Shown here piece by piece: positions 1 to 47,523 of a stretch of DNA of 64,000 nt (positions within the stretch are counted from its first letter, which is position 1; each line of letters opens with the position of its first letter). The stretch lies in assembly GCA_019056785.1 (NCBI GenBank), contig DXJV01000005.1:1-64000 (forward strand), given 5' to 3'. The DNA is from Candidatus Heimdallarchaeota archaeon (lineage in GTDB: Archaea; Asgardarchaeota; Heimdallarchaeia; JABLTI01). The notes under the pieces were generated by a model. It was not told where the DNA came from and did not search any database. It saw only the letters and a list, made by a program, of their open reading frames with translations. The position numbers and the translations under genes were made by a program.

Positions 1-945
1 CAACCTTCTTTAGGTGGAATAAACCTCTAGGATATTTCCAAACCAAACTGCTATGCTGTTCTCGAAACCCTTCGTAAAGACCCTGAAATTCAGATTCCAG
101 TCTTTCATGATGATGCTCAAGGAACCGCAACTGTGATTTTAGCAGGTATTCTTGGAGCGCTAAAATTTGTCGGCAAAAGTCTGGACCAGGTTAAAATTGC
201 TATGCTAGGCGTTGGTTCAGCAAACACGCGCACAGCTTATTTATTTGAAGCTGCGGGGGCTAATCTCAAAAATGTTGTTATGTGTGATTCAAAGGGGATA
301 ATTACCAAGGACCGACCTGACATCGTTGAACAAAAAGATTACGACTTTTTCAAATATGACTTGGCCCAAAAAACCAATGGTGAGGGTTTAAGTGGTGACT
401 TTGGTGTGGCAACAAAAGGCGCTGATATTATTATTTCTGCTTCTAAATCCCAACCCGGAACCATTAAAAAGGAATGGATCTCTCACATGGCAAGTGATTC
501 AATTGTTTTTGCATGTGCAAACCCCCTACCTGAAATTTGGCCTTGGGATGCAAAAGAGGCGGGTGCAAAAATCGTCGGAACAGGTCGGAGCGATTTTCCA
601 AATCAGGTAAATAATAGCCTTGGCTTTCCTGCGATTTTCAGAGGCGCCCTTGATGTGCACGCTCGAACCATTTCAGATGAAATGTGTGTTGCTGCTGCCC
701 ATGCTCTAAGTGCAGTTGCTGAAGAAAATGGCCTGAAACAAGATTATATACTCCCAAAGATGGACCAATGGAAAGTTTATCCCAAAGAAGCCACAGCAGT
801 AGGGATGAAAGCCATTGAACAGAAAATTGCCCGCATAGAGATGGAAGAAGAAGAGCTCTATAAGATGGCTGAAGAAAAAATCAAATACGCACGTGATCTG
901 ACTAAGCTCTTAATGGATGAGAAATTCATCAAACCAAAAATTTAG
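1..945 (+). CDS. NAD(P)-dependent malic enzyme, 5'-truncated by window edge; in-frame TAG at 28-30
   Basis: Frame 1 from base 1 reads QPSLGGINL*DISKPNCY...PVFHDDAQGTA, then GVGSA, FACANPLPEI, TGRSDFPNQVNNSLGFPAIFRGAL, all malic enzyme motifs. Confidence 0.93.
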
Positions 946-7531: not shown

Positions 7532-8086
7532 TTAAATTTTCTCGAGTTCTATTACAATCCATTGAATAGCTTCTTCTACCCCCACTCCTTCTGTAGCAAT
7601 TGTTGGTTGGATATGCCAGCTCCGGTTTTTCATCTGTTCAGGGTCATTCAATCCCAATTTGTGAATCAATTCTTCGATTGACATCGCCCCTTCTTTATCT
7701 TGCTTGTTCGCAACGATAAGTAAAGGTGCATCAGGATACTGCGGGTCAAGCAGCACTTTCCAGAGTTCAGTTTTAGCTTCTTCAAATCGTTCTCGGTCAG
7801 CAGAATCAATCACAAAGATTATTGCACTCGAACCTTTCATCAATGTTCCCCAAAGGTTGCGAAAATGCAGCTGCCCTCCAAGATCAAAAATGCTAAGATT
7901 GACGTTTTTCCTTTTCAAGACTTCAACGTTGACTCCGATTGTTGGTAACGTTTCGATGTTTTTTTCAAATCGCAAGAAATTAAGCATGGTGGTTTTTCCT
8001 GCAGCATCTAAACCCACAACAGCAATTTTAAATTGTTTTCGTTGTCTAAAGAGTCTTGCTAAAAAGCTCAATTGTCTCGTCCTCAT
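7532..8086 (-). CDS. Arf-family small GTPase (Asgard Arf-related)
   Basis: G1 GLDAAGKTT, PTIGxNVE, DLGGQ, LW, IFVIDSADRER, ANKQD, R-S-WHIQ; N-terminal amphipathic helix (L)SFLARLF. Start may be TTG at 8071. Confidence 0.95.
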   Translation of the reverse strand: MRTRQLSFLARLFRQRKQFKIAVVGLDAAGKTTMLNFLRFEKNIETLPTIGVNVEVLKRKNVNLSIFDLGGQLHFRNLWGTLMKGSSAIIFVIDSADRERFEEAKTELWKVLLDPQYPDAPLLIVANKQDKEGAMSIEELIHKLGLNDPEQMKNRSWHIQPTIATEGVGVEEAIQWIVIELEKI

Positions 8087-17972: not shown

Positions 17973-18563
17973 ATGTTCCCAAAAAATAATTATCTGATGA
18001 AATGGTGGCTTAGAGTGAAACTATTAGCGAAAGTTGTACTTGCAGGTGACGGTGGTGTTGGAAAAACAACTTTAATACATCGCTATATAACTAATAGTTT
18101 TATTGATTCGACAAAATTAACTATCGGTGCTGCTTTTCACACGCACGAAATAGAAATGGGCGAGCATTCGGTTTTGACACAAATCTGGGACCTTGGGGGA
18201 CAAGAGCAGTTTAAACAGATGGGCCTTTTCGACCGGTATTTTAAAGGCGCAACTGTCACGGTAATAATGTTTGATTTAACTCGTTTAAATACACTTAATA
18301 GCGTCCCTGAATGGGCCGAACTGGCGGTTAACTCGAGTAATACAAAGCTAATCCTTGTAGGCGGGAAAAAGGACTTGGCAAATGGCATTACTTTTACTCT
18401 GGACTCTTTCAAAGATTTAACTGATAAATACAAGTTCGAGTGTTATCATGAGACTTCTTCGGCAACAGGAGAAGGTGTAGCAGACGTTTTTAATTCGATT
18501 GCAAATATTATCATTGATACTACTATTGAAAAACAAAATAACGAAAACAAAGAAAAAGACTAA
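17973..18563 (+). CDS. Rab-like small GTPase
   Basis: GDGGVGKT, TIG, WDLGGQEQF, RYFKGA, GKKD, ETSS; the true start is probably a few codons downstream. Confidence 0.92.
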   Translation: MFPKNNYLMKWWLRVKLLAKVVLAGDGGVGKTTLIHRYITNSFIDSTKLTIGAAFHTHEIEMGEHSVLTQIWDLGGQEQFKQMGLFDRYFKGATVTVIMFDLTRLNTLNSVPEWAELAVNSSNTKLILVGGKKDLANGITFTLDSFKDLTDKYKFECYHETSSATGEGVADVFNSIANIIIDTTIEKQNNENKEKD

Positions 18564-19474: not shown

Positions 19475-20300
19475 TAGAGGCTCGCTCGGTTTTTTCAAGC
19501 ATCTGTTGTAATATATTTTCAAGATGAGCAATTTGAATGATCCCTACCAGTTGTCTGCCCCCAATTAAAATTGTTGGGAGAGCTGTTACACCATATGCTT
19601 TTGCAATCGTAGGGTCCTTTTCAGCGTCGATCGTTTCCACTTCGAGGGCGAATTTTTTCCCAACTTTTTCGATGTGATTGACTGCAACCTGTGACCAGGC
19701 ATCATCCTTTTTAACAAAGAACAATATCTTAGCTGATTTCTCTTTATGGATTCTCGGCGAGAGATCCGGAAGGGGCAATAATCCACTAATTATTTCCTGG
19801 ACAATGAGATTGAATGCCGCATCAACATTTGTATCTGTCTTTGCACTTGTAAAGATTACATTTGCTTTAGAAAGCGGTGTATCACCTAAAAACCTCATAT
19901 CAAATGCTAAAGGTGTATTGTGCCTTTGTGCCAGGTCTAATTTTGTTCCTACGAGGACAATTGGAACGGAATCTTTGTTTGCCTTACAAAGATCTTCATA
20001 CCACCCAGGAAGATTAGCAAATGTCTTGGGATTGGTAAGGTCATAAGTGAGTAAAGCACCAGAAGCACCCTGAAGATATCGCAGACCAATTTGTCGTCTA
20101 CTTTTTTGCCCAGCAATGTCCCAAATTAAAAGTTTAACATGAACATCGGGATATTCAAAGGTTCTCACATAGAAATTTACACCAAGGGTTGTCATGTAAT
20201 CTTTCTGAAAAGTATCGAAAATGTACCGTCGAACTAGGCTGGTCTTCCCTACACCAGGGTCGCCCAATAAAACTATCTTCCGTTGGTACATTTTAACCAT
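19467..20300 (-). CDS. Rab-like GTPase fused to a C-terminal thioredoxin-like domain
   Basis: GDPGVGKT, TTLGVNF, WDIAGQ, TKLD, TSAK; C-terminal ILFFVKKDDAWS...IDAEKDPTIAKAYGVTALPTILI. Confidence 0.9.
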   Translation of the reverse strand: MVKMYQRKIVLLGDPGVGKTSLVRRYIFDTFQKDYMTTLGVNFYVRTFEYPDVHVKLLIWDIAGQKSRRQIGLRYLQGASGALLTYDLTNPKTFANLPGWYEDLCKANKDSVPIVLVGTKLDLAQRHNTPLAFDMRFLGDTPLSKANVIFTSAKTDTNVDAAFNLIVQEIISGLLPLPDLSPRIHKEKSAKILFFVKKDDAWSQVAVNHIEKVGKKFALEVETIDAEKDPTIAKAYGVTALPTILIGGRQLVGIIQIAHLENILQQMLEKTERASTT

Positions 20301-34895: not shown

Positions 34896-35471
34896 TCAAT
34901 AATATTCTTCGAATGGTTCGTAATAATTGTGGGGGTGACCGCAAGAGGGACAGATCTTAGGTGGCTCTGTTCCTTCGTAGACAAATCCGCATTCCAAGCA
35001 TTTCCATTTAATTTTCTTGTCTCTTTTGAAGACTTTGTTGTTTTTCACAAGCTCCAAGAGTGCAAGGTAGCGTTTTTCGTGTTCTACTTCTACTTTTGCG
35101 ATGTTTTTGAATTTCAAAGCAATTTCTGGAAAGCCTTCCTTTTCTGCTACTTTCGCAAAACCTGGGTAGACTTTCGTATGTTCTTCGTTTTCTCCTTCTG
35201 CAGCAAATTTCAAATTTTCCTCTGTTGTACCGATGTCGGTTGGGTAGGCAGCTGTGAATTCCACCGGTCCTCCCTCAAGGAAGTCAAAGAACTGTTTTGC
35301 ATGTTCGTATTCGTTATCTGCTGTCTCTAAGAAGTATTGAGAAATGCGGATAAAGCCTTCTTTTTTAGCTACTTTCGCATACATGGTATATCTATTTCGT
35401 GCTTGCGATTCGCCGGCAAAGGCTTTCAAGAGGTTCTTTTCTGTTTCTGTTCCTTTAATTGATTTTCCCAT
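34896..35471 (-). CDS. rbr: Rubrerythrin
   Basis: [12 protein letters not shown], ExxH diiron motifs, C-terminal WKCLECG...CPSCGH rubredoxin domain. Confidence 0.97.
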
Positions 35472-35486
35472 TTTTTATCAACTCTG

Positions 35487-35867
35487 TTAGTTTTTCCAAA
35501 GGCTGTGCTTATTACAATATTCTCTTGCAATAATATTAGATGTATCTTTTACCATAAAGATTGCTTTTGGTTCATCGCCAGGGTTTAAATACTTTCGTTG
35601 TGTTTTCCCATCAGCGATGATTTCAATCCATTGAATCCAATGATCTTCAACCATTGGATGCAGTGTACTTCCAATGACCACTTCGACTTTCCCGCCGCCT
35701 TTATCTTCCACGACAGGAACGTGTTTCTCGTTTTTCCAGTCAGCTGTTTGTTCTTCTAAAAGAACCATTGGTTCGCCGCAGCAAACAAGGGTCCCTCCAC
35801 CTGCATTTAGAACTTCAACGATGTTCCCACAGATGTTACACTTATAAATTTGGTATCGTTCTGTCAT
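35487..35867 (-). CDS. dfx: Desulfoferrodoxin (2Fe superoxide reductase)
   Basis: [11 protein letters not shown]...[28 protein letters not shown]; ATG at 35867. Confidence 0.96.
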
Positions 35868-36011
35868 TACGAATTCACCAATTGGATTTACGTACGATTG
35901 ACCTTTATTAAATAATTTTTCTTTAAAAAGTGAAGAGAACAATTAAAGAGGAACTAAAAACTGTGACAAAAATTGCGCATTGAAAAAAATAGGGAAAGGC
36001 TGGGGATTATT

Positions 36012-37199
36012 TTATTTGGTTATACCCAGCTCTTTATGCTTTTGATAGATCGCGTTAGCGAGTTCGTCGAGTTTCTTTCGTCCTTCGTCTGTAAGTTTGC
36101 CACGCATGATCACAGGCTCAATGAATTCAGGATGAATTCTCGTCAAAATCCCAACCAATTGTTCTTTCAGTTTAGCTTTCCAGCCATAAGAGCCGATAAT
36201 AGATGCGAATTTTGCTTTTGGCCGTAAAGCATTTACGAGGTAGGTTGCGTAAATTGCAAGGGGATGTGCTCCGGTTAAGACCGCTGGGGCACCGATAACA
36301 ATAGTGGCTGCATCTACTAAATCCATGGCTAATTCGCCGATGTCAGTAACTGCAAGATTATAGGGTTTTACAGTAATACCTTTCTCTACGAGTTTCTCGA
36401 TGAAATATTCAACCATCTCTTGAACACTATGATGCATTGAAATAAATGGTAACACAACCTCATTCTTTACGTCGTCAGAGATCCATTCTTTGTATGCATT
36501 TATTATAAACTCTGGTTCTTGATGAACGGGGCCATGACTTGGAGCAATCATATCGAAGTCGTATTTTTCCAGTTTTTTGAGATTCTTAACAATGATTTTC
36601 CGGAAGGGCATCATGATTTCAGCGAAGTATCTTTTGGCAGAAGAGTATGTTAAAGGTTTGTCGACAACAAAAGTTTCACTCTGGGCAAGATGCGTACCAA
36701 ACATATCACAAGTAAAGATTATTTTGTCTTCTTTTACATATGTTGCAATTGTTTCCGGCCAGTGCACCCATGGAATGGTGACTATCTCTAATGTTTTGTC
36801 CCCTAAAGAGAGTGTTTCGCCATCTTCCCGTACAAGAAAGCGGTCTTCAGGAATGTGAAGATGAACCATTAAATGTTCTTTCCCTAAGCTACTGGTCACG
36901 ACCTTAGCTTTTGGATAAAGCTCGAGCATTTTCACCAAGCCTTCGGAATGGTCCTGCTCGCTATGATTGGAGATCAAATAATCAATTGTTTTTACAGGTG
37001 CTTGTTCAAGGTTGTGAAGCAATTCATAGACTTTCGTTCCATCAACGGTGTCAATCAAAGCAGTTTTTTCTGAACCGATTATCAAGTAAGCATTATAGGT
37101 TGTCCCATTTGGGAGGGGAATTAGCTGATCAAATAAGCGACGGTCATAATCCTTCGCTCCTACTGCATAAATTTTAGGCTTAATTTCAGTTATTGCCAT
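36012..37199 (-). CDS. fprA: Flavodiiron protein FprA (O2/NO reductase)
   Basis: GTTYNAYLI, NHSEQDHS, HWPE, CDMFG, PSHG, flavodoxin domain GSYGW. Confidence 0.95.
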   Translation of the reverse strand: MAITEIKPKIYAVGAKDYDRRLFDQLIPLPNGTTYNAYLIIGSEKTALIDTVDGTKVYELLHNLEQAPVKTIDYLISNHSEQDHSEGLVKMLELYPKAKVVTSSLGKEHLMVHLHIPEDRFLVREDGETLSLGDKTLEIVTIPWVHWPETIATYVKEDKIIFTCDMFGTHLAQSETFVVDKPLTYSSAKRYFAEIMMPFRKIIVKNLKKLEKYDFDMIAPSHGPVHQEPEFIINAYKEWISDDVKNEVVLPFISMHHSVQEMVEYFIEKLVEKGITVKPYNLAVTDIGELAMDLVDAATIVIGAPAVLTGAHPLAIYATYLVNALRPKAKFASIIGSYGWKAKLKEQLVGILTRIHPEFIEPVIMRGKLTDEGRKKLDELANAIYQKHKELGITK

Positions 37200-37366
37200 G
37201 TTTGCATCAACTCACATAGCTATTAATTTCCTTTGCTTGAAAAACTTATCCCAAAGAAAACTATAATTCATCCTATCTGAAAATTTAGATTCTAAACCCT
37301 CAAAATAAAGGGAAAAAAAGGAAATCACCAAGTAGCAACTTGGCTTAACTTTGCTATCTTGCATTT

Positions 37367-38017
37367 TTAATGCTTGAAAGACTCGAGTATTGCTTGTAAA
37401 AGCATTTCTTCTGGAACAAGCCCTTCAACATTTCCCTTCCCATCATTAATTATCGTATTTGGTACGCCAAAGATATCAAAGACTGAAGCAAGTTGAGCAA
37501 ACTGTGAGGCCTCAATCATCTCAGCAGTAATAAAATCGTTTGCAATGGCTAATTTGTGCGCACGTAATACCATCGCCGGGCAGTAGGGGCACTCGAGGGT
37601 AACAAACACCTTGAGATTAACTTTTTGTTTAATCGATTTCAACATTTCATGTGCTTGGGGTGATAGAATTGCATCTCGATTTGCAACAAGCATTATGGAT
37701 TCAACTAAAGTGGTGAATTCCTTTCCGGCCGGAACGCCGAAGAACCGGACGCCATAGTCTTTATCTCCTTCAATAACAATTGCAGGATGTCGTTCAATGC
37801 CATATTCTTTCGCTTTTGGATGACTTGCTTCACAATCGCAAATATCCAGCTCGATTTTATCTGATAAACTTGCTACCTCTGTCATCAGAGAAATCATTTC
37901 ATTACAGAATAAGCAATGTCCTTTTGTTGAAAAAACTCTGAGAGTAACGGGGTTTTTCATATCACTAAAACGTTGCTTGACAATTTGTCTAACACTTTCA
38001 TCTAATAATGTTGTCAT
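37367..38017 (-). CDS. Protein disulfide oxidoreductase (PDO / AhpF N-terminal-like, double thioredoxin fold)
   Basis: CLFC and CPYC motifs, GVPAGKEF, GVP. Confidence 0.9.
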   Translation of the reverse strand: MTTLLDESVRQIVKQRFSDMKNPVTLRVFSTKGHCLFCNEMISLMTEVASLSDKIELDICDCEASHPKAKEYGIERHPAIVIEGDKDYGVRFFGVPAGKEFTTLVESIMLVANRDAILSPQAHEMLKSIKQKVNLKVFVTLECPYCPAMVLRAHKLAIANDFITAEMIEASQFAQLASVFDIFGVPNTIINDGKGNVEGLVPEEMLLQAILESFKH

Positions 38018-38321
38018 TTTTGTTAGCTCCTTTTATTAGTTCAAACTGAAAAGTAAATGCTTTTTTTAAAACTATTCTTTTTTAGTTTCTTAAGCTTAGG
38101 ACACTATTTTCTTTTCATTCTAATTTTTCTATAGGTTAATTAGCTATCTTATTTGTCCCAAGTAATTCAGTTCACAAGTGGTACTCTACAAGTAAGTCAA
38201 CTAAAAATTTTCTGCAGAAAAAAGGCGATAACAAAAGGAATTTAAAGATTAAGCATAAAATAATGTTGGGAAAAACAAAAATTATCAAAAATTCCTGAAT
38301 AGAAAATGGTTGTAGGTTTCC

Positions 38322-40475
38322 TTGCAGCAGATTCTTGAAGAAGAGACTCGAGAGTTCCATTCACTCTTCGTACATGACTTTAATGTGGATGGTATTTCCG
38401 AAATAATTGCTTCACGCTTACAAAAAAGTAGCACAGAGATTAGTGTTCTTCATCCCAAACATCTTGCTAATTCTTCTGTGAAAATTAATGAACGCATTAA
38501 CGTTCTCTGTGTGGCACAGACAAGTTTGGATAAAGGCTTTGAATTAATAACTGGCGATATCAAAGGAGTCCTTCGGATCAATGCTAGAAATGGCCGTCCC
38601 TTTTATAGTAAAGATATTAAAGATGGCATTCGCTTGCCTTCCAGTATTTTGGCAGCCGCGCCAGGTGATTTGAATGGGAATAAGCTTTCTGAAATAGTCG
38701 TTGGTTGTGCAAATGGCGAAGTAGTAATGATTGAACGCATTCCTGGCAGAAAACACCGGTGGGATAAGATTCGCGGTTTCTCCTTGGGAAAAGTCTTCCA
38801 AAAACCAGTGACAACCATTCTTACAGGTGATTTCAATGGTAACGGTTATACTGGTTTCATTGCAGGCTCTGAAGATGGTTTTTTCAAGGAGATCGAATTT
38901 CGACCGCAATTACAAAAATTTGACCTTATTGGAGAGTTTAAAGTTGAAAGCCCTCCATCATTTTGTTTCTGTGGTGACTTTGACCGGGATGGTATCTCTG
39001 AAGTGATGGTAGGAGAGCAGTCAGGAAAACTCAATATCTTTAAACGAAATTATTTAATGTCGAGTCACACCTTAGATGGCGCTATAACTTGTGGTGTGGT
39101 TGGTGATGTAGATAATGACCACCAACTTGAGGTTGTGGTTGGAACTTCTCGGGGCTCTTTTCATATTCTTCGTTCGAATACAATTGAAACACATGAGGGC
39201 TACAGCAATATCGCAGACTTGAAAATCGGCGATTTATACGGAAATAGACAAAATGAATTGATTTTTTCTATAAATAAAAGACGAATTCTTGCTTTTACAA
39301 TCACACGTGATAAAGCCTCGGAAAAATCAAATGTTGAGTTGATCCCATTCAAGGACCCGCAACAATTACAAGCACGCACACCACAGCCATCGGTGGCACA
39401 AAATGCTTTCTGCCCGAATTGTAGCTCACAAGTGCGTTTTATTGAGCAATATCGACGATGGTATTGTTATACTTGCCGGCAATATGTCGCACCTGTAAGT
39501 AAGAAAGAAGAAGTAAAACGAAAGGTGCCAACGATCGAGGCGAAAAAGTATGGAACACCCTACAGTGTCGGCTCTCACTATGACCCTTATCGCCCCTATG
39601 AACCAACAAGGGAAACAGCTGCCGGTGGAGCATCGAAACTTGAGAAAGTAAAAGATAGAGTTGAGAGTAAATTAGCAGATCTTCAGCCTGGGCAAAACCT
39701 CGAGTGGCAAGAAGAAATTGATGAGAATGGTATTGTAGATGCTCAAGAAGATGTGAATTATTTTCTCCCCCTCGATTTAGAAGCTGACTTGGATGTTGGA
39801 GTGTCCATTTTTAATGACATCCTAAAAATAAAGCACGTAATTCTAATCCATTCCCAATCAGGCGTTCCTCTATTTAGTCAAGGCTTCGGAAAGGATATCG
39901 ATGTGTCTTTGACTAGCGGCTTTTTAAGTGCTGTTGGAACTTTTACTGAAGAAATGGCCGGCGAGTCAGAAAAGCGAATTGGAGTCTTTAGTGAAATTGG
40001 CCGTGAAGGATTCTGGATAATAATTTATGAAGGCGAAATGTCAAAAACCGCCCTCCTTGTTAGCGAAAAGATCGGTGAACACTTGAAAAAACGCATACAG
40101 ATTTTCATGAAAGAGTTTGAACAAACATTTAAAACAGAACTTGAGAATTTCAATGGCTTTATCTCCGCTTTTAAGGGAGCAACCGACCTTTTGGAAAAAC
40201 ACCTGCGCTTAGAATACCTTTATCCACTCAAGATGGATGCTAAAAGAATGCGGCTAACAGCTATCAACCAAAATGAAAAAACCTTGGCAAAAGCATTCAC
40301 AGATTTTCTCAGCCAAACAGACGAAGAGGTTTTCTATGTGACAGAATTAATTGATGTTATTATGCAAGATCCAAAGAATAACCTCCTAAAGGAAGATGTT
40401 CTTAAAATTCTTATTAAATACCTCGAAAATGGCATGTTAATCCCTCTCCCTCCCCCACCAACAGAACATGTTTGA
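38322..40475 (+). CDS. Cytosolic FG-GAP beta-propeller - Zn ribbon - longin - winged helix protein
   Basis: Seven (G)Dx(N/D)xDGxxE-like repeats; CPNC...WYCYTC; longin segment HVILIHSQSGVPLF...LTSGFLSAV..F.EE; C-terminal wH-like region; no signal peptide or TM. Confidence 0.8.
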   Translation: MQQILEEETREFHSLFVHDFNVDGISEIIASRLQKSSTEISVLHPKHLANSSVKINERINVLCVAQTSLDKGFELITGDIKGVLRINARNGRPFYSKDIKDGIRLPSSILAAAPGDLNGNKLSEIVVGCANGEVVMIERIPGRKHRWDKIRGFSLGKVFQKPVTTILTGDFNGNGYTGFIAGSEDGFFKEIEFRPQLQKFDLIGEFKVESPPSFCFCGDFDRDGISEVMVGEQSGKLNIFKRNYLMSSHTLDGAITCGVVGDVDNDHQLEVVVGTSRGSFHILRSNTIETHEGYSNIADLKIGDLYGNRQNELIFSINKRRILAFTITRDKASEKSNVELIPFKDPQQLQARTPQPSVAQNAFCPNCSSQVRFIEQYRRWYCYTCRQYVAPVSKKEEVKRKVPTIEAKKYGTPYSVGSHYDPYRPYEPTRETAAGGASKLEKVKDRVESKLADLQPGQNLEWQEEIDENGIVDAQEDVNYFLPLDLEADLDVGVSIFNDILKIKHVILIHSQSGVPLFSQGFGKDIDVSLTSGFLSAVGTFTEEMAGESEKRIGVFSEIGREGFWIIIYEGEMSKTALLVSEKIGEHLKKRIQIFMKEFEQTFKTELENFNGFISAFKGATDLLEKHLRLEYLYPLKMDAKRMRLTAINQNEKTLAKAFTDFLSQTDEEVFYVTELIDVIMQDPKNNLLKEDVLKILIKYLENGMLIPLPPPPTEHV

Positions 40476-40611
40476 CTTGAAATTAGGTTCTCTTCCTAAT
40501 ACTAAAAACTTAAGTGTTCTTTTACTTATTCTTTTTGTACTTGTAAAAGAAAATGCAAAATTGTAAACCAATAAATTAGTTAACATAGATTTATTGAATG
40601 GTGAATTTGAC

Positions 40612-43600
40612 ATGTCAGAATTGGTTAAAAAAGCCATGGTGTTCGAAGAAAAAGGAAAATGGAGCAATGCTGCGAAAAGCTATTTACAAGCAGCGAGAGA
40701 AGCCGTTGAAACTAACCAAACAAAAGACGCCAAGAATCTCTTTTTAAAAGCAATTGCTGCTTCTGAAAAAACCGAAGACAATCTCTTATTAGTGGAAAGT
40801 GTTTTTGCGTATGAAAAAATTGCCACTAAAGCTGAGAAAAAAGAAGTGCTCCCAAAGGCACTGCCGGCTGTTAAAAGTTTGTTAGCTCTGGCATTAACTA
40901 AGAAGAAGAATCTACTGGCCTTTGAATATTTAGAAAAGAAAGAACTTATTAGTAGAAGTACAGGTGTGGATTTAGAAGAGACCTTAAGAGAGAAAGGCGA
41001 GGTCTCAAGACGTCTAGCCTTAAAAATGGTTATCAGTAAAAAAGTGGAGGAACGAGAACGTGGTTTTGCTTTCCTGAAAGAGGCTGCAAAATGCTTTTTA
41101 GAAATTAATGCCATTAAAGAGAAATTTAAAGGTGATTTCCAAGCTTTCCAGTTGTTAATGGAAAAGGGTTTTATAAAAGAGGGGTTCAGTTTATTTGAAA
41201 AGCTCATCAGTTTTTGTGAAACTAATCAACTTGCAGAGGAAGCAACAACCGTTCTTCAGCAAATAATTACTTATGCAAATGCAATTTTAAATGGAAAAGG
41301 ATCGAAAAAATTGGTCAAAGCGCTTCAAGCAACTTTCTCTTCTGCGGATCCTGGTGGAGAACTCTTGAAAATAGGCATTGAAAAAGCGCAGGAAATAGGC
41401 GCAAATGAAGTTATAGTCGCTGCAGCAACCATACAAGTTGAGCAAGGCAACCTGCAATTCAATAAAAAGAAATTTGATATTGCTAAACGCCTTTATGAAA
41501 AGGCTTTACTTCTTCTTACAACAATTCAAGCTGTAGATACTGCGAAAAATGTTTTCAAGCAAATTGCCACCAAAGCGTACACCTTACTTGATACGAAAGG
41601 GAAATTCCAACTTGCACTCGATTATTTTGCAATGCTTCAAATTATGGAAGAGCTCGATAAAGGCTTTCTCGCTGACTTCTTTGTCGAAAAAGGAGCCAAC
41701 ATGTTTCAACGGGATCTCATCACTTTGGCGTTAGAGGATTACAAAAGTGCTTGTAGAGTTTATCTCTCTGGTCAGCTAACTGTAAAGTTCGAAAAAACTG
41801 TTAGTATAATTTTTGAAAAAAGTTTGGAGCTTATAGCGCATGCGGACTTTCAAAATGCCCTCATTTATTCACATGATGCAATTTCCATTCTCCTTAAGGT
41901 TGAGAAATTTGAAAACATAGGTGAGCAGGCTTCTAAAATCGCGCATGCCTTACTCGAAAACAATCAACTCCCTGAAGCAGAAGATTTTGTAAAAATCGCA
42001 TTTGACAACTTCCTCAAAGCCGGAAAAACCGTAGAAGCAGCCACTACTTACAAAACCATGGGTGAATCTTTCCTTGCTCTTGAGCGATTTGAAACAGGGG
42101 CTGGATATCTCATTCAGGCAGCAAAAACATATCGAAGTGCCGAAGCTGAAGATAAAATCATGCAGACAGCAAAGCCTCTCCTTAAAGCTGCCATCGATCA
42201 ACTTATAGATGGGAATGCAGACCTCGCACAATCATTAAATCTTAAGGCTATTGAATGTGCGAAAGAAAAAGGTCCATTGGCACAAGTCGAAGTACTTCAG
42301 GAGTTTAATACTCAAGCGATGATTTCTAACCAACCAAAGTTAGTTTTAAACAACATTCAGCTGGCCACTAAAATTGTTGGAGCGAATTTTCCGGCTGAAA
42401 AAAGAGCTCTGGCGGAGAAAGCGATATCCTATGGTCAGCAACTGATAATTTCGAATCAGCAATTTAAGCTGGGAACTGATTTTATCACACATGCTGTTTT
42501 AACTCTGGCTGAACTTGGAGACAGTACCCAGAGTAGTCAGATCATCTTTGAAATTGGTTCTTTACTTTTTGAGAACAAACAACCGGAACTGGCAAAAGGA
42601 CTGTTGCAATTAATTACTCAAGTCTTAAAAACAGAGGAGAATCCTGAAGTTTTCGGAACAAACGTTGCGAATGTTGCCAAACTTCTGATTGAAAATCGAT
42701 TTGTTGATGATGGTATTGATCTCTTGCGCAAGAGTGTTGGCTCCTATCTTAACGTAGGCGGCGTTGAGCCGGTCATTAAATTGGCTCGCTATTGTGCTCT
42801 AAAAGCACAGGAAAATATGGCAGCGGGTGATGTTGTGTTTGCCAAACACTTGTTTATTGCTGCAATGGAGTTCAGTACCCTCGTTGATTTGGAAGTTCAG
42901 AGCGAGATTTTAACTTCCGCAACAAATGCTTTTCTCGAGATTGGTGATTTCTATACTATAAATGAATTTTATGACTTTGCTAAGGCAAATCTCGAGGGTG
43001 AAAAAGACTATTTGGGAAAAGTGGGCCGCTTACAAATTTTCCAAGGGAGTACTTTGCGTGATCAAAAAGGGTTGGTAGATGAAGCCTCAGAATTTATACA
43101 CAATGGTATTGCAACCTTAAAAGAAGTTGATATGATTGCCGAAGCTGGCGAGGTTGCGCTCAATCAAGGAAAAGCTTTCATTGAGAAGGGGAATTTTGTC
43201 TATGGTGAAGAATTGATTGAAACTGCAGCTCAAATCTTCATTCAGTTAAATGATATTGAACGTTCTGGCGATGCCTTCTTATCCCTTGCAGAAATTAACA
43301 TGCAAAAGTCGCAATGGCAAGATGCTTTTCAGCAGATTGAACTTGCGAATAAATCCTATAGTCAAACCAACTTGGACAAACTTGCTTCCACAATTATTAT
43401 CACTGCAGATATCGGACAAAAAGCATTAATAAATAAACCCGCTGAAAACAAAGAATTTGCTTTACAATGTTTTGATAGAGCAATCCAACTCGCCAATGAG
43501 CATAAGCTCTTTGCCAGTGAGGTAGATGTTACTTTACTCGAAGGACGGGCGTTTGCAACAATTAAAGATCACCAAACTGCTTACAACTTCTTTTTACAAC

Positions 43601-46600
43601 TTGCAAACTTGCTCGAAGAGAAGGATGAAACCGAGAAATCCCCGCTAATCGCTGAAGAACTCACTACTTTTGCGACAATATTCATTGCTGATAATGAAGT
43701 TGAGTTAGGACTCCAACTGGTAGATTTAGCAACAGCTATTTATTTGCGTCTTGGCCAGCCAATAAATGCTTCGGAGACTTATATGAAAGCCTGTAATGCT
43801 TTATTGAAGATGAACAAAATCGTTCAAGGCGTAAAGCTTGTGCTTCTTGCTTCTGATACTTTAATGGTAGCAAATGAATACAAACATGCTGTGAGAATTT
43901 TAACTGAAATTGTTGATTTCCTGTATGATTTGAAAGACTATCAAAATGCTGCCATTGTTGCTGGCCAAATCGTCACTGTTCATCAAAAAACCGGCGAAGT
44001 TGAAGAACAAAAGAAAGTGATAAATCGATTAGTCGAAAAGGCAATCGAAGTGATCAATGAGGGCAGAATCATGGAAGGAGAACAACTTTGGGAGCAGGCA
44101 GCCAATTTTAGCATCTCCGTTGACTTGGATTATGCACTTCAAATCAATGACCAAAGAATTGAAAATCTCTTGAACGCCGGCATGTATAACTCTACTAATA
44201 ATGCCTTCAAACAGTTTTTGCCAATTCTAGAAGAAGATAAGGAAAAATTACTTTCACAAGTTGTAAAGATAGCCGAAATTACTGATGATCTTTTTGCGAA
44301 AGAAGAATTCAAACTGGCAAAGGATTTTGTTTTCACGGCAGTTGATTATTACCTTAAAGCTGAGGAATTTGATCAGGTAATAACTTTCTGTTTGGATGTT
44401 GGTCAACGGTTTATTGTTGCTAATGAGGAAACAAGTGGCATTGAGTTGATTGACAAGGCAGCATTTATTGCTAACGATTCTCTAGGTGCACATGAAGCTG
44501 CGAAAATCTACCTTCGCACAGGATTCTTACTTGTTGAAAAGGACTACAATGAAAGTGGTTTTCTGGCAATAAATAAAGCTGTTGACATTGAACTTCAAAC
44601 GCAAAATATGGAGGGGTGTAATGAACTTGGTGAGATTGCTATTGAAAAAGCAAATGAACTCATTAACCATAACATTCCTCTTGCAATTAAAATTTATGAG
44701 CAAGCTTCGCAAATCTTTCAGAAAGCATCTAATTTTATTAAAGCAGGAGAAGTACAAACAACGATTCTTAATGCCTTCTTAAGTCTTGGAGATGCAGTTG
44801 GAGCAATAAAAGCTTGCGAACAAGCAGTTGATTATTATCTAAAAGGGAAAAATAGCGAACTTGCCGCAACCGCTGCAAGACAAATAATTGAGTCTTCGAG
44901 GAGATTTTTCGATGAAAATGACTTTCCAAAAGCCGTGTTAATTCTCGAGCGCGGACGATTCTTGGTGGAAAAGACAACAAGATATGATCTTTTGGATTTG
45001 ATAGTCAGTATCTACATGAACGCTGCAAATCAGAACCTTCCAAATAGAAAATCTGCCATTGGTGTGTTTTTCTTGAAGCGTGCAATTGCAATTGCCGAAA
45101 GCAGCCCCGACCCAGAAGAAATCAAAAAAGTAGTAAACCTCTCATTAACTATTGCTTTGGAAACCATTAAAAAGAAAAACTCTCTTGCAGGAGCAAAAGT
45201 CCTGGAAATGATCTCTCGACTCGAGATTTCTAAAAATGCTCTCTTGTCTCAATTAACCGCGACTCTTCTTGATGCTCTAAAACTCACTTTAGAAACAGAA
45301 TGGAATATGATCGGGAAAGTACTTCGAGATGCTTTTCATTTCTTTAAAGGCGCCAATCAAGATGAAGCAATTAAAGAGTTAATTTCCATTTTGACAAAAA
45401 GAGCAAATGCTGACTTGCTCCTCAATAAACCCCAACTTGGCTTCTTCTTTTTAGAGCATGCAATCCGGATTGTTAATGAGTCTGGAGACAAAGAACTAAT
45501 GTTTTATCTTGGCAATGACCTTCTCGAACAGTTCCTCGTTTTGCATGAGGAGGTAACTTTCGATTCTCTCTATCGGTTGCTTGGATATTGCTACCAAATT
45601 TTCCAACAGATTCAAGACTTGGAATCCATCACTCGTGTTGGGGCAGAGTTTGCTAAATTGGGTTCAAAGGACCTTATTAATAATATGCAATCAATCCGTG
45701 GCTATGAGTCTCTCTTAACTGCAAGAGATATTGCAAGTCAGACACAAAATAGTGCGCTTATGAAAGCTGTTGTGCTTGCTCTCTTAGATTTTGCGATTCA
45801 ACAATCTGCGAAAAATGCCAATTCTGTGCTGTCAACCTTAGAGGATATTGTTCAAGGGTTAAAAGAATTCGAAATACCAAAGTCAACATCAGTAGCTATT
45901 GATTACGCTTCCTTGCAAAGTTATCTTAAAACTCTCACCTCTTTTGGCAATAAAGTCAGTAAAAATGATAAAACATTCAAGCTTGGGAAGAAGATCATTC
46001 AAAATTGCTCTAGATTACTCGCCCTCACCGGCAACCATCTTGAACTCGAAAAAGATTTAGCTGATGTCAAAAAGAACATGCAGAAACTTTGTCGCCGGGG
46101 CAATCAAGAGGCAGCTTATAAATTGCGAGAAGCAGCCATTGTTTTTATTGATTTGAATGAAACAAACCAGGCCATTAAAATTGCTGAAGATGCTTTTGCA
46201 GCTTCCCAACAACTACTAGAGCGGAAAAAGTACCTCGATTCTGTGGAATTTGCTAAAGTGAGTTTGGTTGTTAACCAAAAACTCGATATCACTTCTGAGT
46301 TAAAAAACATCGGCTTATTTGCCTACAGTTCAGGTGACCGGCTTATAAATGAAGGCAAAATTCTGGAGGCAATGGACTTTTATGATATTGCAATCGAGGC
46401 CTTCGATTTATCAAATGACGATGAGAATTCTAATCGCTTGATCAACAAGATTGTACAGACGCGTGAATGGGATGCCAATAAAATGGTTGCTTTTCAAGTC
46501 TATAAAATAGCCTCCGAATCAGCCATTCGAATGAAAAACTGGCAGAAGGCTCATGAAATTGCCAATAAATGTTATAATCGTGGTATTGCTTTTATCGACC

Positions 46601-47523
46601 AACCACGGGTTCCAACTGAAATATCGCTAAAATTCATCACCCTTGCCGGGCGAATTTTTGAGGATATAGGTGCAATCAAAGATGCTGCCAATTCCTATGA
46701 TTCTGCCATTCTAAAATTCATTCGCTTAATGAGAACCAGAAAAAACATTGAATCAATAATTACTGAGCTTCTTGTAAAAACGGGAATAAATCGAATGGCT
46801 GGTTGTGATATGGACTCACTTGAGACCATCTTTCTGCGAGTCATGGAATTAGCTGAAATGAAGAAGTCCAAATACACGAAGATCATCTCTCGCGTCTTAA
46901 AACTCATTAATTCTTCTAAGGTTGGTCAAGCATGGGACTTGATGGTTTCTCTTCCTTATGTCTCCCATGGGCGAATCCGGAAAATTATTGGAACAACAAA
47001 GCGTCGGATAATTTACGACCTTCAGTCCAAAGGAACTTTCGATCGTACGGTTCTCTCTACAACAGACCGCTCTTTACCGCTTTCAGATTATCTCATCGAA
47101 AATCTCTTAATTTCCCGTAAAATTGATGGGCAATCAATAAACAAAGATGTCTTTATTTCTGCTACGAAAATTAAAGCCATTCGTTCGTACTTTTATAATG
47201 AATATGAGCTTTGGGGTCGAGTTGATTTAGAGGCTCTTACAAAGGAATTTGGCGTCCTCCCCACCGATGCAGCATCCATTGTCCGGCGGGAATTTCTCCC
47301 CACAATTTATATGGCGGTACTTGATACAGAGCAAAAAGTCTTCTATTCTTTTGACCGCTTAAAAGCTGAAATCTCTCTTATTCTTGGACGTGAACGTAAA
47401 AAGAACGCTCATTTTGATCCCATGCAAGTTGCTTCGGAAATGCATGTCCCTCCTGATATCATTAAAGAGGTTCTTCGGGAAATTTCTTGCGATGAAGTAG
47501 TGGAAAATGCTCCTACAATGTGA
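40612..47523 (+). CDS. Giant (~2300 aa) alpha-SNAP/TPR-like solenoid with C-terminal PCI-like winged helices
   Basis: Recurrent A..Y..AA..F helix pairs along about 2100 aa; C-terminal GRVDLEALTKEFGV...AVLDTEQKVFY and a further HTH; ATG at 40612 with GGTGA RBS. Confidence 0.82.
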   Translation: MSELVKKAMVFEEKGKWSNAAKSYLQAAREAVETNQTKDAKNLFLKAIAASEKTEDNLLLVESVFAYEKIATKAEKKEVLPKALPAVKSLLALALTKKKNLLAFEYLEKKELISRSTGVDLEETLREKGEVSRRLALKMVISKKVEERERGFAFLKEAAKCFLEINAIKEKFKGDFQAFQLLMEKGFIKEGFSLFEKLISFCETNQLAEEATTVLQQIITYANAILNGKGSKKLVKALQATFSSADPGGELLKIGIEKAQEIGANEVIVAAATIQVEQGNLQFNKKKFDIAKRLYEKALLLLTTIQAVDTAKNVFKQIATKAYTLLDTKGKFQLALDYFAMLQIMEELDKGFLADFFVEKGANMFQRDLITLALEDYKSACRVYLSGQLTVKFEKTVSIIFEKSLELIAHADFQNALIYSHDAISILLKVEKFENIGEQASKIAHALLENNQLPEAEDFVKIAFDNFLKAGKTVEAATTYKTMGESFLALERFETGAGYLIQAAKTYRSAEAEDKIMQTAKPLLKAAIDQLIDGNADLAQSLNLKAIECAKEKGPLAQVEVLQEFNTQAMISNQPKLVLNNIQLATKIVGANFPAEKRALAEKAISYGQQLIISNQQFKLGTDFITHAVLTLAELGDSTQSSQIIFEIGSLLFENKQPELAKGLLQLITQVLKTEENPEVFGTNVANVAKLLIENRFVDDGIDLLRKSVGSYLNVGGVEPVIKLARYCALKAQENMAAGDVVFAKHLFIAAMEFSTLVDLEVQSEILTSATNAFLEIGDFYTINEFYDFAKANLEGEKDYLGKVGRLQIFQGSTLRDQKGLVDEASEFIHNGIATLKEVDMIAEAGEVALNQGKAFIEKGNFVYGEELIETAAQIFIQLNDIERSGDAFLSLAEINMQKSQWQDAFQQIELANKSYSQTNLDKLASTIIITADIGQKALINKPAENKEFALQCFDRAIQLANEHKLFASEVDVTLLEGRAFATIKDHQTAYNFFLQLANLLEEKDETEKSPLIAEELTTFATIFIADNEVELGLQLVDLATAIYLRLGQPINASETYMKACNALLKMNKIVQGVKLVLLASDTLMVANEYKHAVRILTEIVDFLYDLKDYQNAAIVAGQIVTVHQKTGEVEEQKKVINRLVEKAIEVINEGRIMEGEQLWEQAANFSISVDLDYALQINDQRIENLLNAGMYNSTNNAFKQFLPILEEDKEKLLSQVVKIAEITDDLFAKEEFKLAKDFVFTAVDYYLKAEEFDQVITFCLDVGQRFIVANEETSGIELIDKAAFIANDSLGAHEAAKIYLRTGFLLVEKDYNESGFLAINKAVDIELQTQNMEGCNELGEIAIEKANELINHNIPLAIKIYEQASQIFQKASNFIKAGEVQTTILNAFLSLGDAVGAIKACEQAVDYYLKGKNSELAATAARQIIESSRRFFDENDFPKAVLILERGRFLVEKTTRYDLLDLIVSIYMNAANQNLPNRKSAIGVFFLKRAIAIAESSPDPEEIKKVVNLSLTIALETIKKKNSLAGAKVLEMISRLEISKNALLSQLTATLLDALKLTLETEWNMIGKVLRDAFHFFKGANQDEAIKELISILTKRANADLLLNKPQLGFFFLEHAIRIVNESGDKELMFYLGNDLLEQFLVLHEEVTFDSLYRLLGYCYQIFQQIQDLESITRVGAEFAKLGSKDLINNMQSIRGYESLLTARDIASQTQNSALMKAVVLALLDFAIQQSAKNANSVLSTLEDIVQGLKEFEIPKSTSVAIDYASLQSYLKTLTSFGNKVSKNDKTFKLGKKIIQNCSRLLALTGNHLELEKDLADVKKNMQKLCRRGNQEAAYKLREAAIVFIDLNETNQAIKIAEDAFAASQQLLERKKYLDSVEFAKVSLVVNQKLDITSELKNIGLFAYSSGDRLINEGKILEAMDFYDIAIEAFDLSNDDENSNRLINKIVQTREWDANKMVAFQVYKIASESAIRMKNWQKAHEIANKCYNRGIAFIDQPRVPTEISLKFITLAGRIFEDIGAIKDAANSYDSAILKFIRLMRTRKNIESIITELLVKTGINRMAGCDMDSLETIFLRVMELAEMKKSKYTKIISRVLKLINSSKVGQAWDLMVSLPYVSHGRIRKIIGTTKRRIIYDLQSKGTFDRTVLSTTDRSLPLSDYLIENLLISRKIDGQSINKDVFISATKIKAIRSYFYNEYELWGRVDLEALTKEFGVLPTDAASIVRREFLPTIYMAVLDTEQKVFYSFDRLKAEISLILGRERKKNAHFDPMQVASEMHVPPDIIKEVLREISCDEVVENAPTM

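Follow-up and report, generated by a model that had tools for sequence, protein, structure and literature searches.

What does a beta-propeller do inside an archaeal cell when it is joined to a domain of longin type? This question is raised by a 717-codon open reading frame (ORF) at positions 38322-40475 of a 64,000-nucleotide stretch of contig DXJV01000005.1 (assembly GCA_019056785.1) of Candidatus Heimdallarchaeota archaeon; this whole stretch is referred to here as the window. An earlier sequence-only reading had compared the propeller with the KICSTOR subunit ITFG2 and with BBS2, and the longin and winged-helix tail with NPRL2/3 of GATOR1. It had proposed a Rosetta-stone fusion of KICSTOR-like and GATOR1-like modules that, together with a folliculin-like gene in the window, hinted at precursors of Rag/TORC1 regulators. 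We confirm the observation on which that reading was built, while its interpretation is partly supported. In our best explanation, to which we give a probability of about 0.6, the protein is a soluble cytoplasmic adaptor or scaffold made of a propeller, a Cys4 zinc ribbon, a flexible linker, and a module that combines a longin domain with a winged helix. What we observe is the layout of these domains, the lack of export signals, the conservation among orthologues, the membership of the propeller in the FG-GAP/VCBS superfamily and of the tail in an Asgard family, and the relationship of the tail to Asgard longin proteins; a link to small GTPases is probable by analogy.

The ORF is open from a TTG start. 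A comparison of loci shows that the TTG start is kept in three orthologous loci, and the alignment gives a common N-terminus, MQQ(T/I)LE. We found 28 orthologues, annotated as Heimdallarchaeota or Asgard group, with full-length identities of 55-86%, and the mean column identity among orthologues is 74%; thus, the ORF is not a chance one. The alignment (A1), which was also the input for AF2, holds 24 orthologues. The strings quoted in the sequence-only reading were all found in the protein, GDFDRDGISEVMVGEQSGKLNIFK at aa 218-241, GAITCGVVGDVDNDHQLEVVVGTSRGSFHIL at aa 253-283, and GDFNGNGYTGFIAGSEDG at aa 169-186. The absence of a signal peptide, also noted there, was borne out by a hydropathy scan, in which the N-terminus has no hydrophobic stretch, and the same scan found no membrane helix anywhere in the 717 residues. 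With no hydrophobic segment and with a Cys4 zinc ribbon, the protein is predicted to be soluble and cytosolic. An A/T-rich element, CAAAAGGAATTTAAAGATTAA, with a TTTAAA core precedes the start codon by about 76 nt. The element is largely kept in the three orthologous loci, with a few substitutions in the most divergent one, and the upstream regions around it are otherwise poorly conserved. We regard it as a candidate archaeal BRE/TATA promoter (BRE, B recognition element). DNA nearly identical to positions 38000-42000 of the window was seen in several independent metagenome studies of hydrothermal vents and marine sediments, and six metagenome runs contain at least half of the sampled words.

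The AF2 model built on the 24-orthologue alignment has a mean pLDDT of 68.8; a model from the single sequence (pLDDT 34.9) was set aside. In the N-terminal propeller, most 10-residue blocks have a pLDDT of 70-90. Loops of the form D-x-[DN]-x-[DN]-G-x-x-E occur at aa 19-27, 116-124, 170-178, 219-227, 262-270, and 304-312, and a degenerate seventh loop is found near aa 79. The four cysteines of the zinc ribbon are invariant in the 24 orthologues, as is the core YRR-x-Y-C; Pfam zinc-ribbon matches are weak, and AF2 places short strands at aa 372-389. The linker that follows, about 85 residues, is the most variable and gapped section of the alignment.

The remainder of the protein is the tail. Its alpha/beta domain has the predicted order helix, two strands, helix, three strands, and further helices (H490-500, E503-510, E516-521, H528-546, E556-561, E564-570, E574-580, H586-602, then helices). 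Most of its 10-residue blocks have a mean pLDDT of 82-89, with a drop to 47-64 at aa 521-560. Its signature is SG-x-P-x-(F/Y)-S ... D-x-x-L-x-S-G-F-L-x-A-(V/I)-x-x-F-x-x-E. Behind it, AF2 predicts H640-646, H650-665, H673-682, H690-702, and E706-708, helices and short strands that are compatible with a three-helix bundle plus a wing; the corresponding region of paralogues gives faint Pfam matches to HTH_45 and MarR_2. The longin plus winged-helix layout that had been read from the sequence is supported by the alignment-based model and by profile comparison. The protein ends in ...IKYLENGML-x-P-x-PPPP, with L706, P708, and P710-P713 invariant in all orthologues. This proline end is found in this orthologue group only, and the nearest relatives of the tail module carry I/L-x-P-I-P. 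Profilin or another reader of proline motifs might recognize it as a ligand; a Heimdall profilin reportedly binds polyproline.

How close is the propeller to ITFG2 and BBS2? It has the seven-bladed fold of the FG-GAP/VCBS superfamily (PF01839, PF13517) and belongs to that superfamily: Pfam FG-GAP (43.2 bits, cut-off 22.1) and FG-GAP_3 (38.1 bits, cut-off 26.9) both match above threshold. The likeness to ITFG2 is measurable. Human ITFG2 was the sole significant sequence match in the PDB (phmmer E = 1.3e-5; family profile E = 1.9e-8), with about 37% identity over two blades, as counted by hand on the alignment. The fold searches (Foldseek PDB, VIA, and Atlas) used the full-length model, and their lists were filled by propeller matches; the Foldseek PDB list was headed by ITFG2 chains (7.3e-14, TM-score 0.67 by target), followed by BBSome propellers, and BBS2 was the best VIA match of the propeller. 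However, the ITFG2 alignment is limited to two blades and shifted in register, pairing aa 211-283 with ITFG2 residues 20-93. Pfam Itfg2 (PF15907) remained below threshold, with 18.1 bits against a cut-off of 27, and aligned only aa 251-290 with model positions 13-54. No colinear, full-length similarity to ITFG2 exceeding that to other FG-GAP proteins was found.

The similarity to ITFG2 is in fact no better than that to generic FG-GAP repeats, the outcome that the sequence-only reading had itself named as telling against it. In a profile search that covered 5.8 billion proteins, the best non-orthologous matches were prokaryotic FG-GAP proteins with secretion-type partner domains (46, 41, 38, and 35 bits), and the first eukaryotic ITFG2, from a beetle, scored 34 bits. 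The best BLASTP high-scoring segment pairs were to a Gemmatimonadota VCBS protein (41.6 bits), an Asgard ecto-propeller (40.8), the beetle ITFG2 (39.7), and another Asgard surface protein (37.7). In the Atlas search, a bacterial VCBS cluster matched equally well (TM-score 0.72 by target; root-mean-square deviation 2.9 Å). As a control, the bacterial VCBS protein was itself searched against the PDB, and it too matched BBS2 (1.6e-6) and ITFG2 (6e-3). Few prokaryotic FG-GAP propellers have been solved, so the PDB ranking is tilted toward eukaryotes.

The parallel with BBS2 fares similarly: BBS2 tops the VIA list, but BBS2_Mid matched below threshold (25.6 bits, cut-off 27) and over a single blade. 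A clearly extracellular Asgard FG-GAP propeller (P0040) reaches 44 bits with BBS2_Mid, and since extracellular Asgard proteins of this kind score higher, the match is a generic one. Pfam Beta-prop_BBS7 was also below its cut-off on the propeller, and the features of a BBS2 protein (scores above the PF14781, PF14783, and PF14782 thresholds; coiled-coil, GAE, and platform domains) were not found here. The resemblance to ITFG2 and BBS2 would thus reflect shared FG-GAP ancestry and not orthology. One database entry close to the propeller, a 310-aa fragment (P0210) that is 78% identical to it, carries the NCBI label 'VCBS repeat-containing protein, partial [bacterium]' and is probably a mislabelled Asgard fragment.

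What is the tail? Curated models are of little help. The tail (aa 478-717) had no Pfam match at E<=1, 40 sequences of the tail family gave no Pfam family and a single Fuz_longin_1 match at E 0.17, and a PDB profile search with the tail returned nothing below E 0.5. The link to longins comes from profile comparison within the class. Across 61 genomes of the class, Fuz_longin_1 (PF19036) selected 29 proteins, and the hidden Markov model (HMM) of the tail matches 18 of these 29, in register. In hhalign, the tail alpha/beta domain aligned with the Heimdall Fuz_longin_1 proteins over 104 columns (98.3%, E = 1.3e-14). The same comparison with ORFs of its own genome that overlap Roadblock/LC7 (PF03259) matches gave 73.5% (E = 3e-5), which fits a relationship at the superfamily level; one such Roadblock ORF is matched by the tail HMM at E 0.011, and Pfam Roadblock/LC7 (PF03259) does not match the tail. 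The two hhalign values indicate that the tail domain is a member of the longin clan, with roadblock more distant. A 218-aa paralogue encoded in the same genome (L023) matches Fuz_longin_1 just above the cut-off (26.5 bits, cut-off 26.1) and shows faint matches to adaptor-sigma, sybindin, and MarR, together with a faint winged helix. Atlas feature matches (0.84-0.91), which are leads only, point to unnamed Asgard clusters, to 'Roadblock/LAMTOR2', and to 'clathrin adaptor small chain'. On the profile links and the predicted secondary structure, then, the alpha/beta domain is of longin type.

The tail proved to be a widespread Asgard module. Searched with its profile, 1.84 billion cluster representatives (clusters at 50% identity) yielded 923 clusters at E<=1e-3, of which 336 remain at E<=1e-10; the bearers are 75-2640 aa long, and the match is nearly always C-terminal. 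All members with a source name are Asgard (Hodarchaeales, Promethearchaeota, Lokiarchaeum ossiferum). The module, a longin domain plus winged helix of about 220 aa, is without a curated or Pfam model. In 118 of 158 non-orthologous bearers (about 75%), a membrane helix lies within 90 aa upstream of the tail, and 65 of those also have a hydrophobic N-terminus; 34 of the 158 have no membrane helix. The partner ectodomains include SBP_bac_5, LVIVD, FG-GAP/PQQ propellers, TSP3, and Big/Ig-like repeats, and soluble bearers include Ras-family GTPases, HerA/DUF87-type ATPases, and HEAT repeats. Of the five non-orthologous relatives closest to the tail, two are clusters of Ras-tail fusions (E 1e-50 and 1e-54). 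Because the tail ends proteins of widely differing kinds and mostly stands directly inside the single membrane helix of a large surface protein, it looks like a common cytoplasmic output or docking module, and the 717-aa protein is one of its rare soluble bearers. In the Asgard genome sample, the tail alone was found in four other families, and a word-indexed search with the tail alone returned only orthologue fragments.

Within its own genome, the tail HMM matches about 20 ORFs. The only other full-length copy is in an 805-aa protein (L013, G000:C5:667-3084) with a surface-receptor-like layout of LVIVD repeats, TSP3 repeats, a hydrophobic segment, and the tail. At another locus (G000:C72:18256-19984), a 424-aa protein begins with a tail-like longin domain and also has a winged helix (HTH_45); its gene adjoins a Roadblock/LC7 gene, and Ras-family genes lie within 4-5 kb on both sides.

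How might such a protein work? Longin/roadblock dimers act as platforms for GTPases, and fusions of a GTPase with a longin or a roadblock domain occur in Asgard genomes (PMC10933270); multidomain longin proteins of Asgard archaea have been proposed to act on small GTPases (PMC11188069). In the mechanism that we favor, the propeller, perhaps with the zinc ribbon, would bind a protein or ligand as the input, and the flexible linker would set it apart from the longin plus winged-helix platform. The tail would be the common docking platform, probably pairing with a longin/roadblock protein or binding a small GTPase; this step is proposed from the analogy with longin/roadblock platforms and from the Ras-tail fusions. 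The genome, which is 82.5% complete, holds at least 35 Ras-superfamily genes. As for its origin, a single Heimdallarchaeial lineage most likely joined an FG-GAP propeller to the tail.

Several observations weigh against a GTPase-linked adaptor. No small-GTPase gene adjoins the ORF, the three in the window being 18-30 kb off, and the conserved neighbor is a giant solenoid and not a GTPase. No Ras-tail fusion was found in this genome, in which 14 extended GTPase ORFs were examined. The longin assignment comes from profile links and predicted secondary structure, the fold-search lists having been taken up by the propeller. Furthermore, the AF2 model has an extra, conserved N-terminal helix (H490-500), a roadblock-like trait by the topologies in PMC10933270. 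Partner binding by the tail, the propeller, the zinc ribbon, and the LPPPP end is in each case putative. Co-folding of two tail copies gave a median of 0.39 against a mark of 0.42 and is evidence neither way. By eye, tail-like ORFs lie near GTPase genes just slightly more often than chance would have it.

Each of the 9 genomes of the genus contains a full-length orthologue, and none was found in the 291 other Asgard genomes sampled, so the fusion looks young and local. The features of the ORF and its surroundings are collected in Table 1.

Table 1. Features of the propeller-longin gene and of its surroundings in the window.
Feature	Position in window	Residues	Strand	Basis or remark
Propeller-longin ORF	38322-40475	717 aa	+	717 codons open from TTG start
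FG-GAP/VCBS-type beta-propeller, seven blades	38322-39326	1-335	+	AF2 model
Cys4 zinc ribbon (C364, C367, C382, C385)	39393-39500	358-393	+	Alignment, Pfam, AF2
Charged linker containing P/Y, predicted disordered	39501-39755	394-478	+	pLDDT <50
Longin-type alpha/beta domain (predicted)	39777-40220	486-633	+	AF2 and profile comparison
Helical winged-helix-like end	40227-40445	636-708	+	AF2
PLPPPP tail	40443-40460	708-713	+	Invariant columns in alignments A1 and A2
A/T-rich element, candidate promoter	38232-38252		+	TTTAAA core
2309-aa alpha-solenoid gene	40594-47523		+	Co-oriented, starts 118 bp downstream; ATG at 40612 may be the real start
Oxidative-stress cluster	34896-38017		-	Divergent; double thioredoxin, ODP/metallo-beta-lactamase (flavodiiron-like), desulfoferrodoxin, rubrerythrin
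Ras-superfamily small-GTPase gene	7553-8029		-	
Ras-superfamily small-GTPase gene	18030-18512		+	
Ras-superfamily small-GTPase gene	19788-20279		-	
Folliculin-like gene	9878-11203			27 kb from the propeller-longin gene

The downstream neighbor encodes a giant alpha-solenoid with Pfam matches to SNAP (36.4 bits), MIT (25.6 bits, the N-terminus being MIT-like), and TPR_12; a PDB sequence search with it gave no match. All 9 genomes of the genus carry it, as does the single genome of the sister genus, in which it is cut off by the contig end. It evolves faster than the propeller-longin protein (48-55% identity within the genus vs 67-73%). In L001-L003, and in every genome of the genus where the contig allows, the two genes stand side by side in the same orientation. 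A paralogue of the solenoid of the same length, 18-19% identical, is encoded at G000:C18:33088-40014, and similar giant paralogues are found in most other sampled genomes of the genus. On the other side, the oxidative-stress cluster is syntenic in orthologous loci.

Could the two neighbors form one proto-coat, tether, or BBSome-type complex that acts on membranes? In all nine genomes of the genus, wherever contigs permit, the genes are neighbors in the same orientation with 118-150 bp between them; their narrow distributions coincide; parts of the solenoid resemble MIT and SNAP; and the best VIA match of the propeller is BBS2. However, the whole neighborhood is syntenic among these close relatives, so the adjacency carries little weight, and at one orthologous locus a glyoxalase gene is inserted between the two. 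The intergenic region contains T-rich stretches and a TATA-like element of its own, an arrangement that resembles a terminator and then a promoter and suggests separate transcripts; the paralogous giant at C18 has no propeller partner; and a propeller together with a solenoid is a very generic combination. We consider such a complex unlikely.

The zinc ribbon and winged helix could instead bind nucleic acid, making the protein a regulator of transcription or of RNA in which the longin-like domain senses a ligand. The zinc ribbon is invariant, the faint HTH_45 and MarR_2 matches in paralogues would fit, and the language-model neighbors of the tail include clusters with some TrmB (52%) or HTH_47 (11%) members. 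Against this, no HTH family in Pfam is significant on the 717-aa protein, and most bearers tether the module to a membrane. Furthermore, the net charge of aa 636-717 is -3, and of the six members closest to the query, five have values from -2 to -10 and one has +4; for the third helix of the winged-helix region, the median net charge in 40 members of the family is 0. Given the acidic charge, DNA binding by the winged helix is unlikely, and we hold out little hope for a nucleic-acid role as a whole. We are just as doubtful of a further reading, in which the propeller-longin protein and the solenoid would form a stable complex that regulates a small GTPase or is recruited by one, and that resembles KICSTOR (ITFG2-KPTN on SZT2) or the BBSome by design and perhaps by descent.

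The proposed relation to GATOR1 and folliculin was not recovered. On the tail, Pfam NPR2 and NPR3 (PF06218, PF03666) had no match at E<=1, and no solved GATOR1 chain was matched at E<=10 in the PDB profile search, so the link to NPRL2/3 has no sequence signal behind it. The folliculin-like gene is distant and unlinked. A Rosetta-stone fusion of KICSTOR and GATOR1 modules is thus unsupported, since the FG-GAP likeness is generic, the NPRL2/3 signal is missing, and the fusion occurs in one genus. That the propeller is nevertheless a true ITFG2 relative fused to an NPRL2/3-like longin, a precursor of Rag/TORC1 regulators with a perhaps SZT2-like giant neighbor, would suit the PDB and Foldseek rankings of ITFG2, the intracellular location, the longin-type tail, and the adjoining scaffold gene of equal distribution, but we find it the least credible reading of all, because the ITFG2 match spans two blades out of register and stays under the Pfam cut-off, secreted prokaryotic VCBS proteins score equally or higher and a bacterial one matches BBS2 and ITFG2 as well, Pfam and PDB searches gave no NPRL2/3, NPR2/NPR3, or SZT2 signal, the tail is common to hundreds of unrelated surface proteins, the fusion is seen in a single genus in a sample of 301 Asgard genomes, and the folliculin-like gene is 27 kb off. 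We see in this protein known folds joined locally, and not a demonstrable ancestor of KICSTOR or GATOR1.

The folds themselves are not new, and a preprint (10.64898/2026.10.28.762692) already counts an Asgard-eukaryote structural cluster with the label BBS7/ITFG2 among catalogued signature proteins. Literature searches on Asgard with BBS2, FG-GAP, or BBSome found nothing specific, and the main text of the Nature Microbiology paper on eukaryotic signature proteins has no mention of ITFG2, BBS, or longin. In the searchable literature, we found no published description of the propeller-longin fusion or of the preference of the tail family for membrane proteins. The tail family matters more than the likeness to ITFG2, and the origin of Rag/TORC1 regulation is not brought within reach by this locus. 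If the tail does dock small GTPases, as eukaryotic longin platforms do, it would connect the Asgard cell surface physically with the expanded Asgard GTPase repertoire in a way that can be tested, and for expression and use as bait the soluble propeller protein would be the most convenient member of the family.

How does the proposed adaptor compare with known systems? ITFG2 of KICSTOR (PDB 9v6e, 9o5a; PF15907) is likewise an intracellular seven-bladed propeller of FG-GAP type, but it has neither the zinc ribbon nor the longin tail, and the archaeal protein is confined to one genus. The BBSome propellers (BBS1, BBS2, BBS7, BBS9; PDB 6vbu, 4v0m, 4yd8) are among the leading fold matches. However, none of the coiled-coil, GAE, and platform domains of BBS2/7/9 is seen in the AF2 model, and, unlike in BBS2, the archaeal propeller is followed by the zinc ribbon, linker, and longin tail. 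The prokaryotic VCBS/FG-GAP propellers (PF13517, PF01839), which are mostly secreted, provide the best Pfam matches and score at least as high as ITFG2; the archaeal protein differs from them in that it has no signal peptide or anchor and is joined to cytosolic modules.

For the tail, NPRL2 and NPRL3 of GATOR1 have only the general class in common with it, a longin domain followed by further helical domains. The longins of the Fuz/Mon1/HPS1 type (PF19036) and the stand-alone Asgard longins would share with the archaeal tail its predicted order of strands and helices; the tail differs in its extra N-terminal helix and in the winged-helix-like end that always stands behind the domain. A parallel in design is found in the GTPase-longin and GTPase-roadblock fusions of Asgard archaea and in the Rag GTPases with their roadblock C-terminal domain (PMC10933270). 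The Ras-tail clusters follow the same design principle, and in the 717-aa protein the N-terminal partner is a propeller instead of a GTPase.

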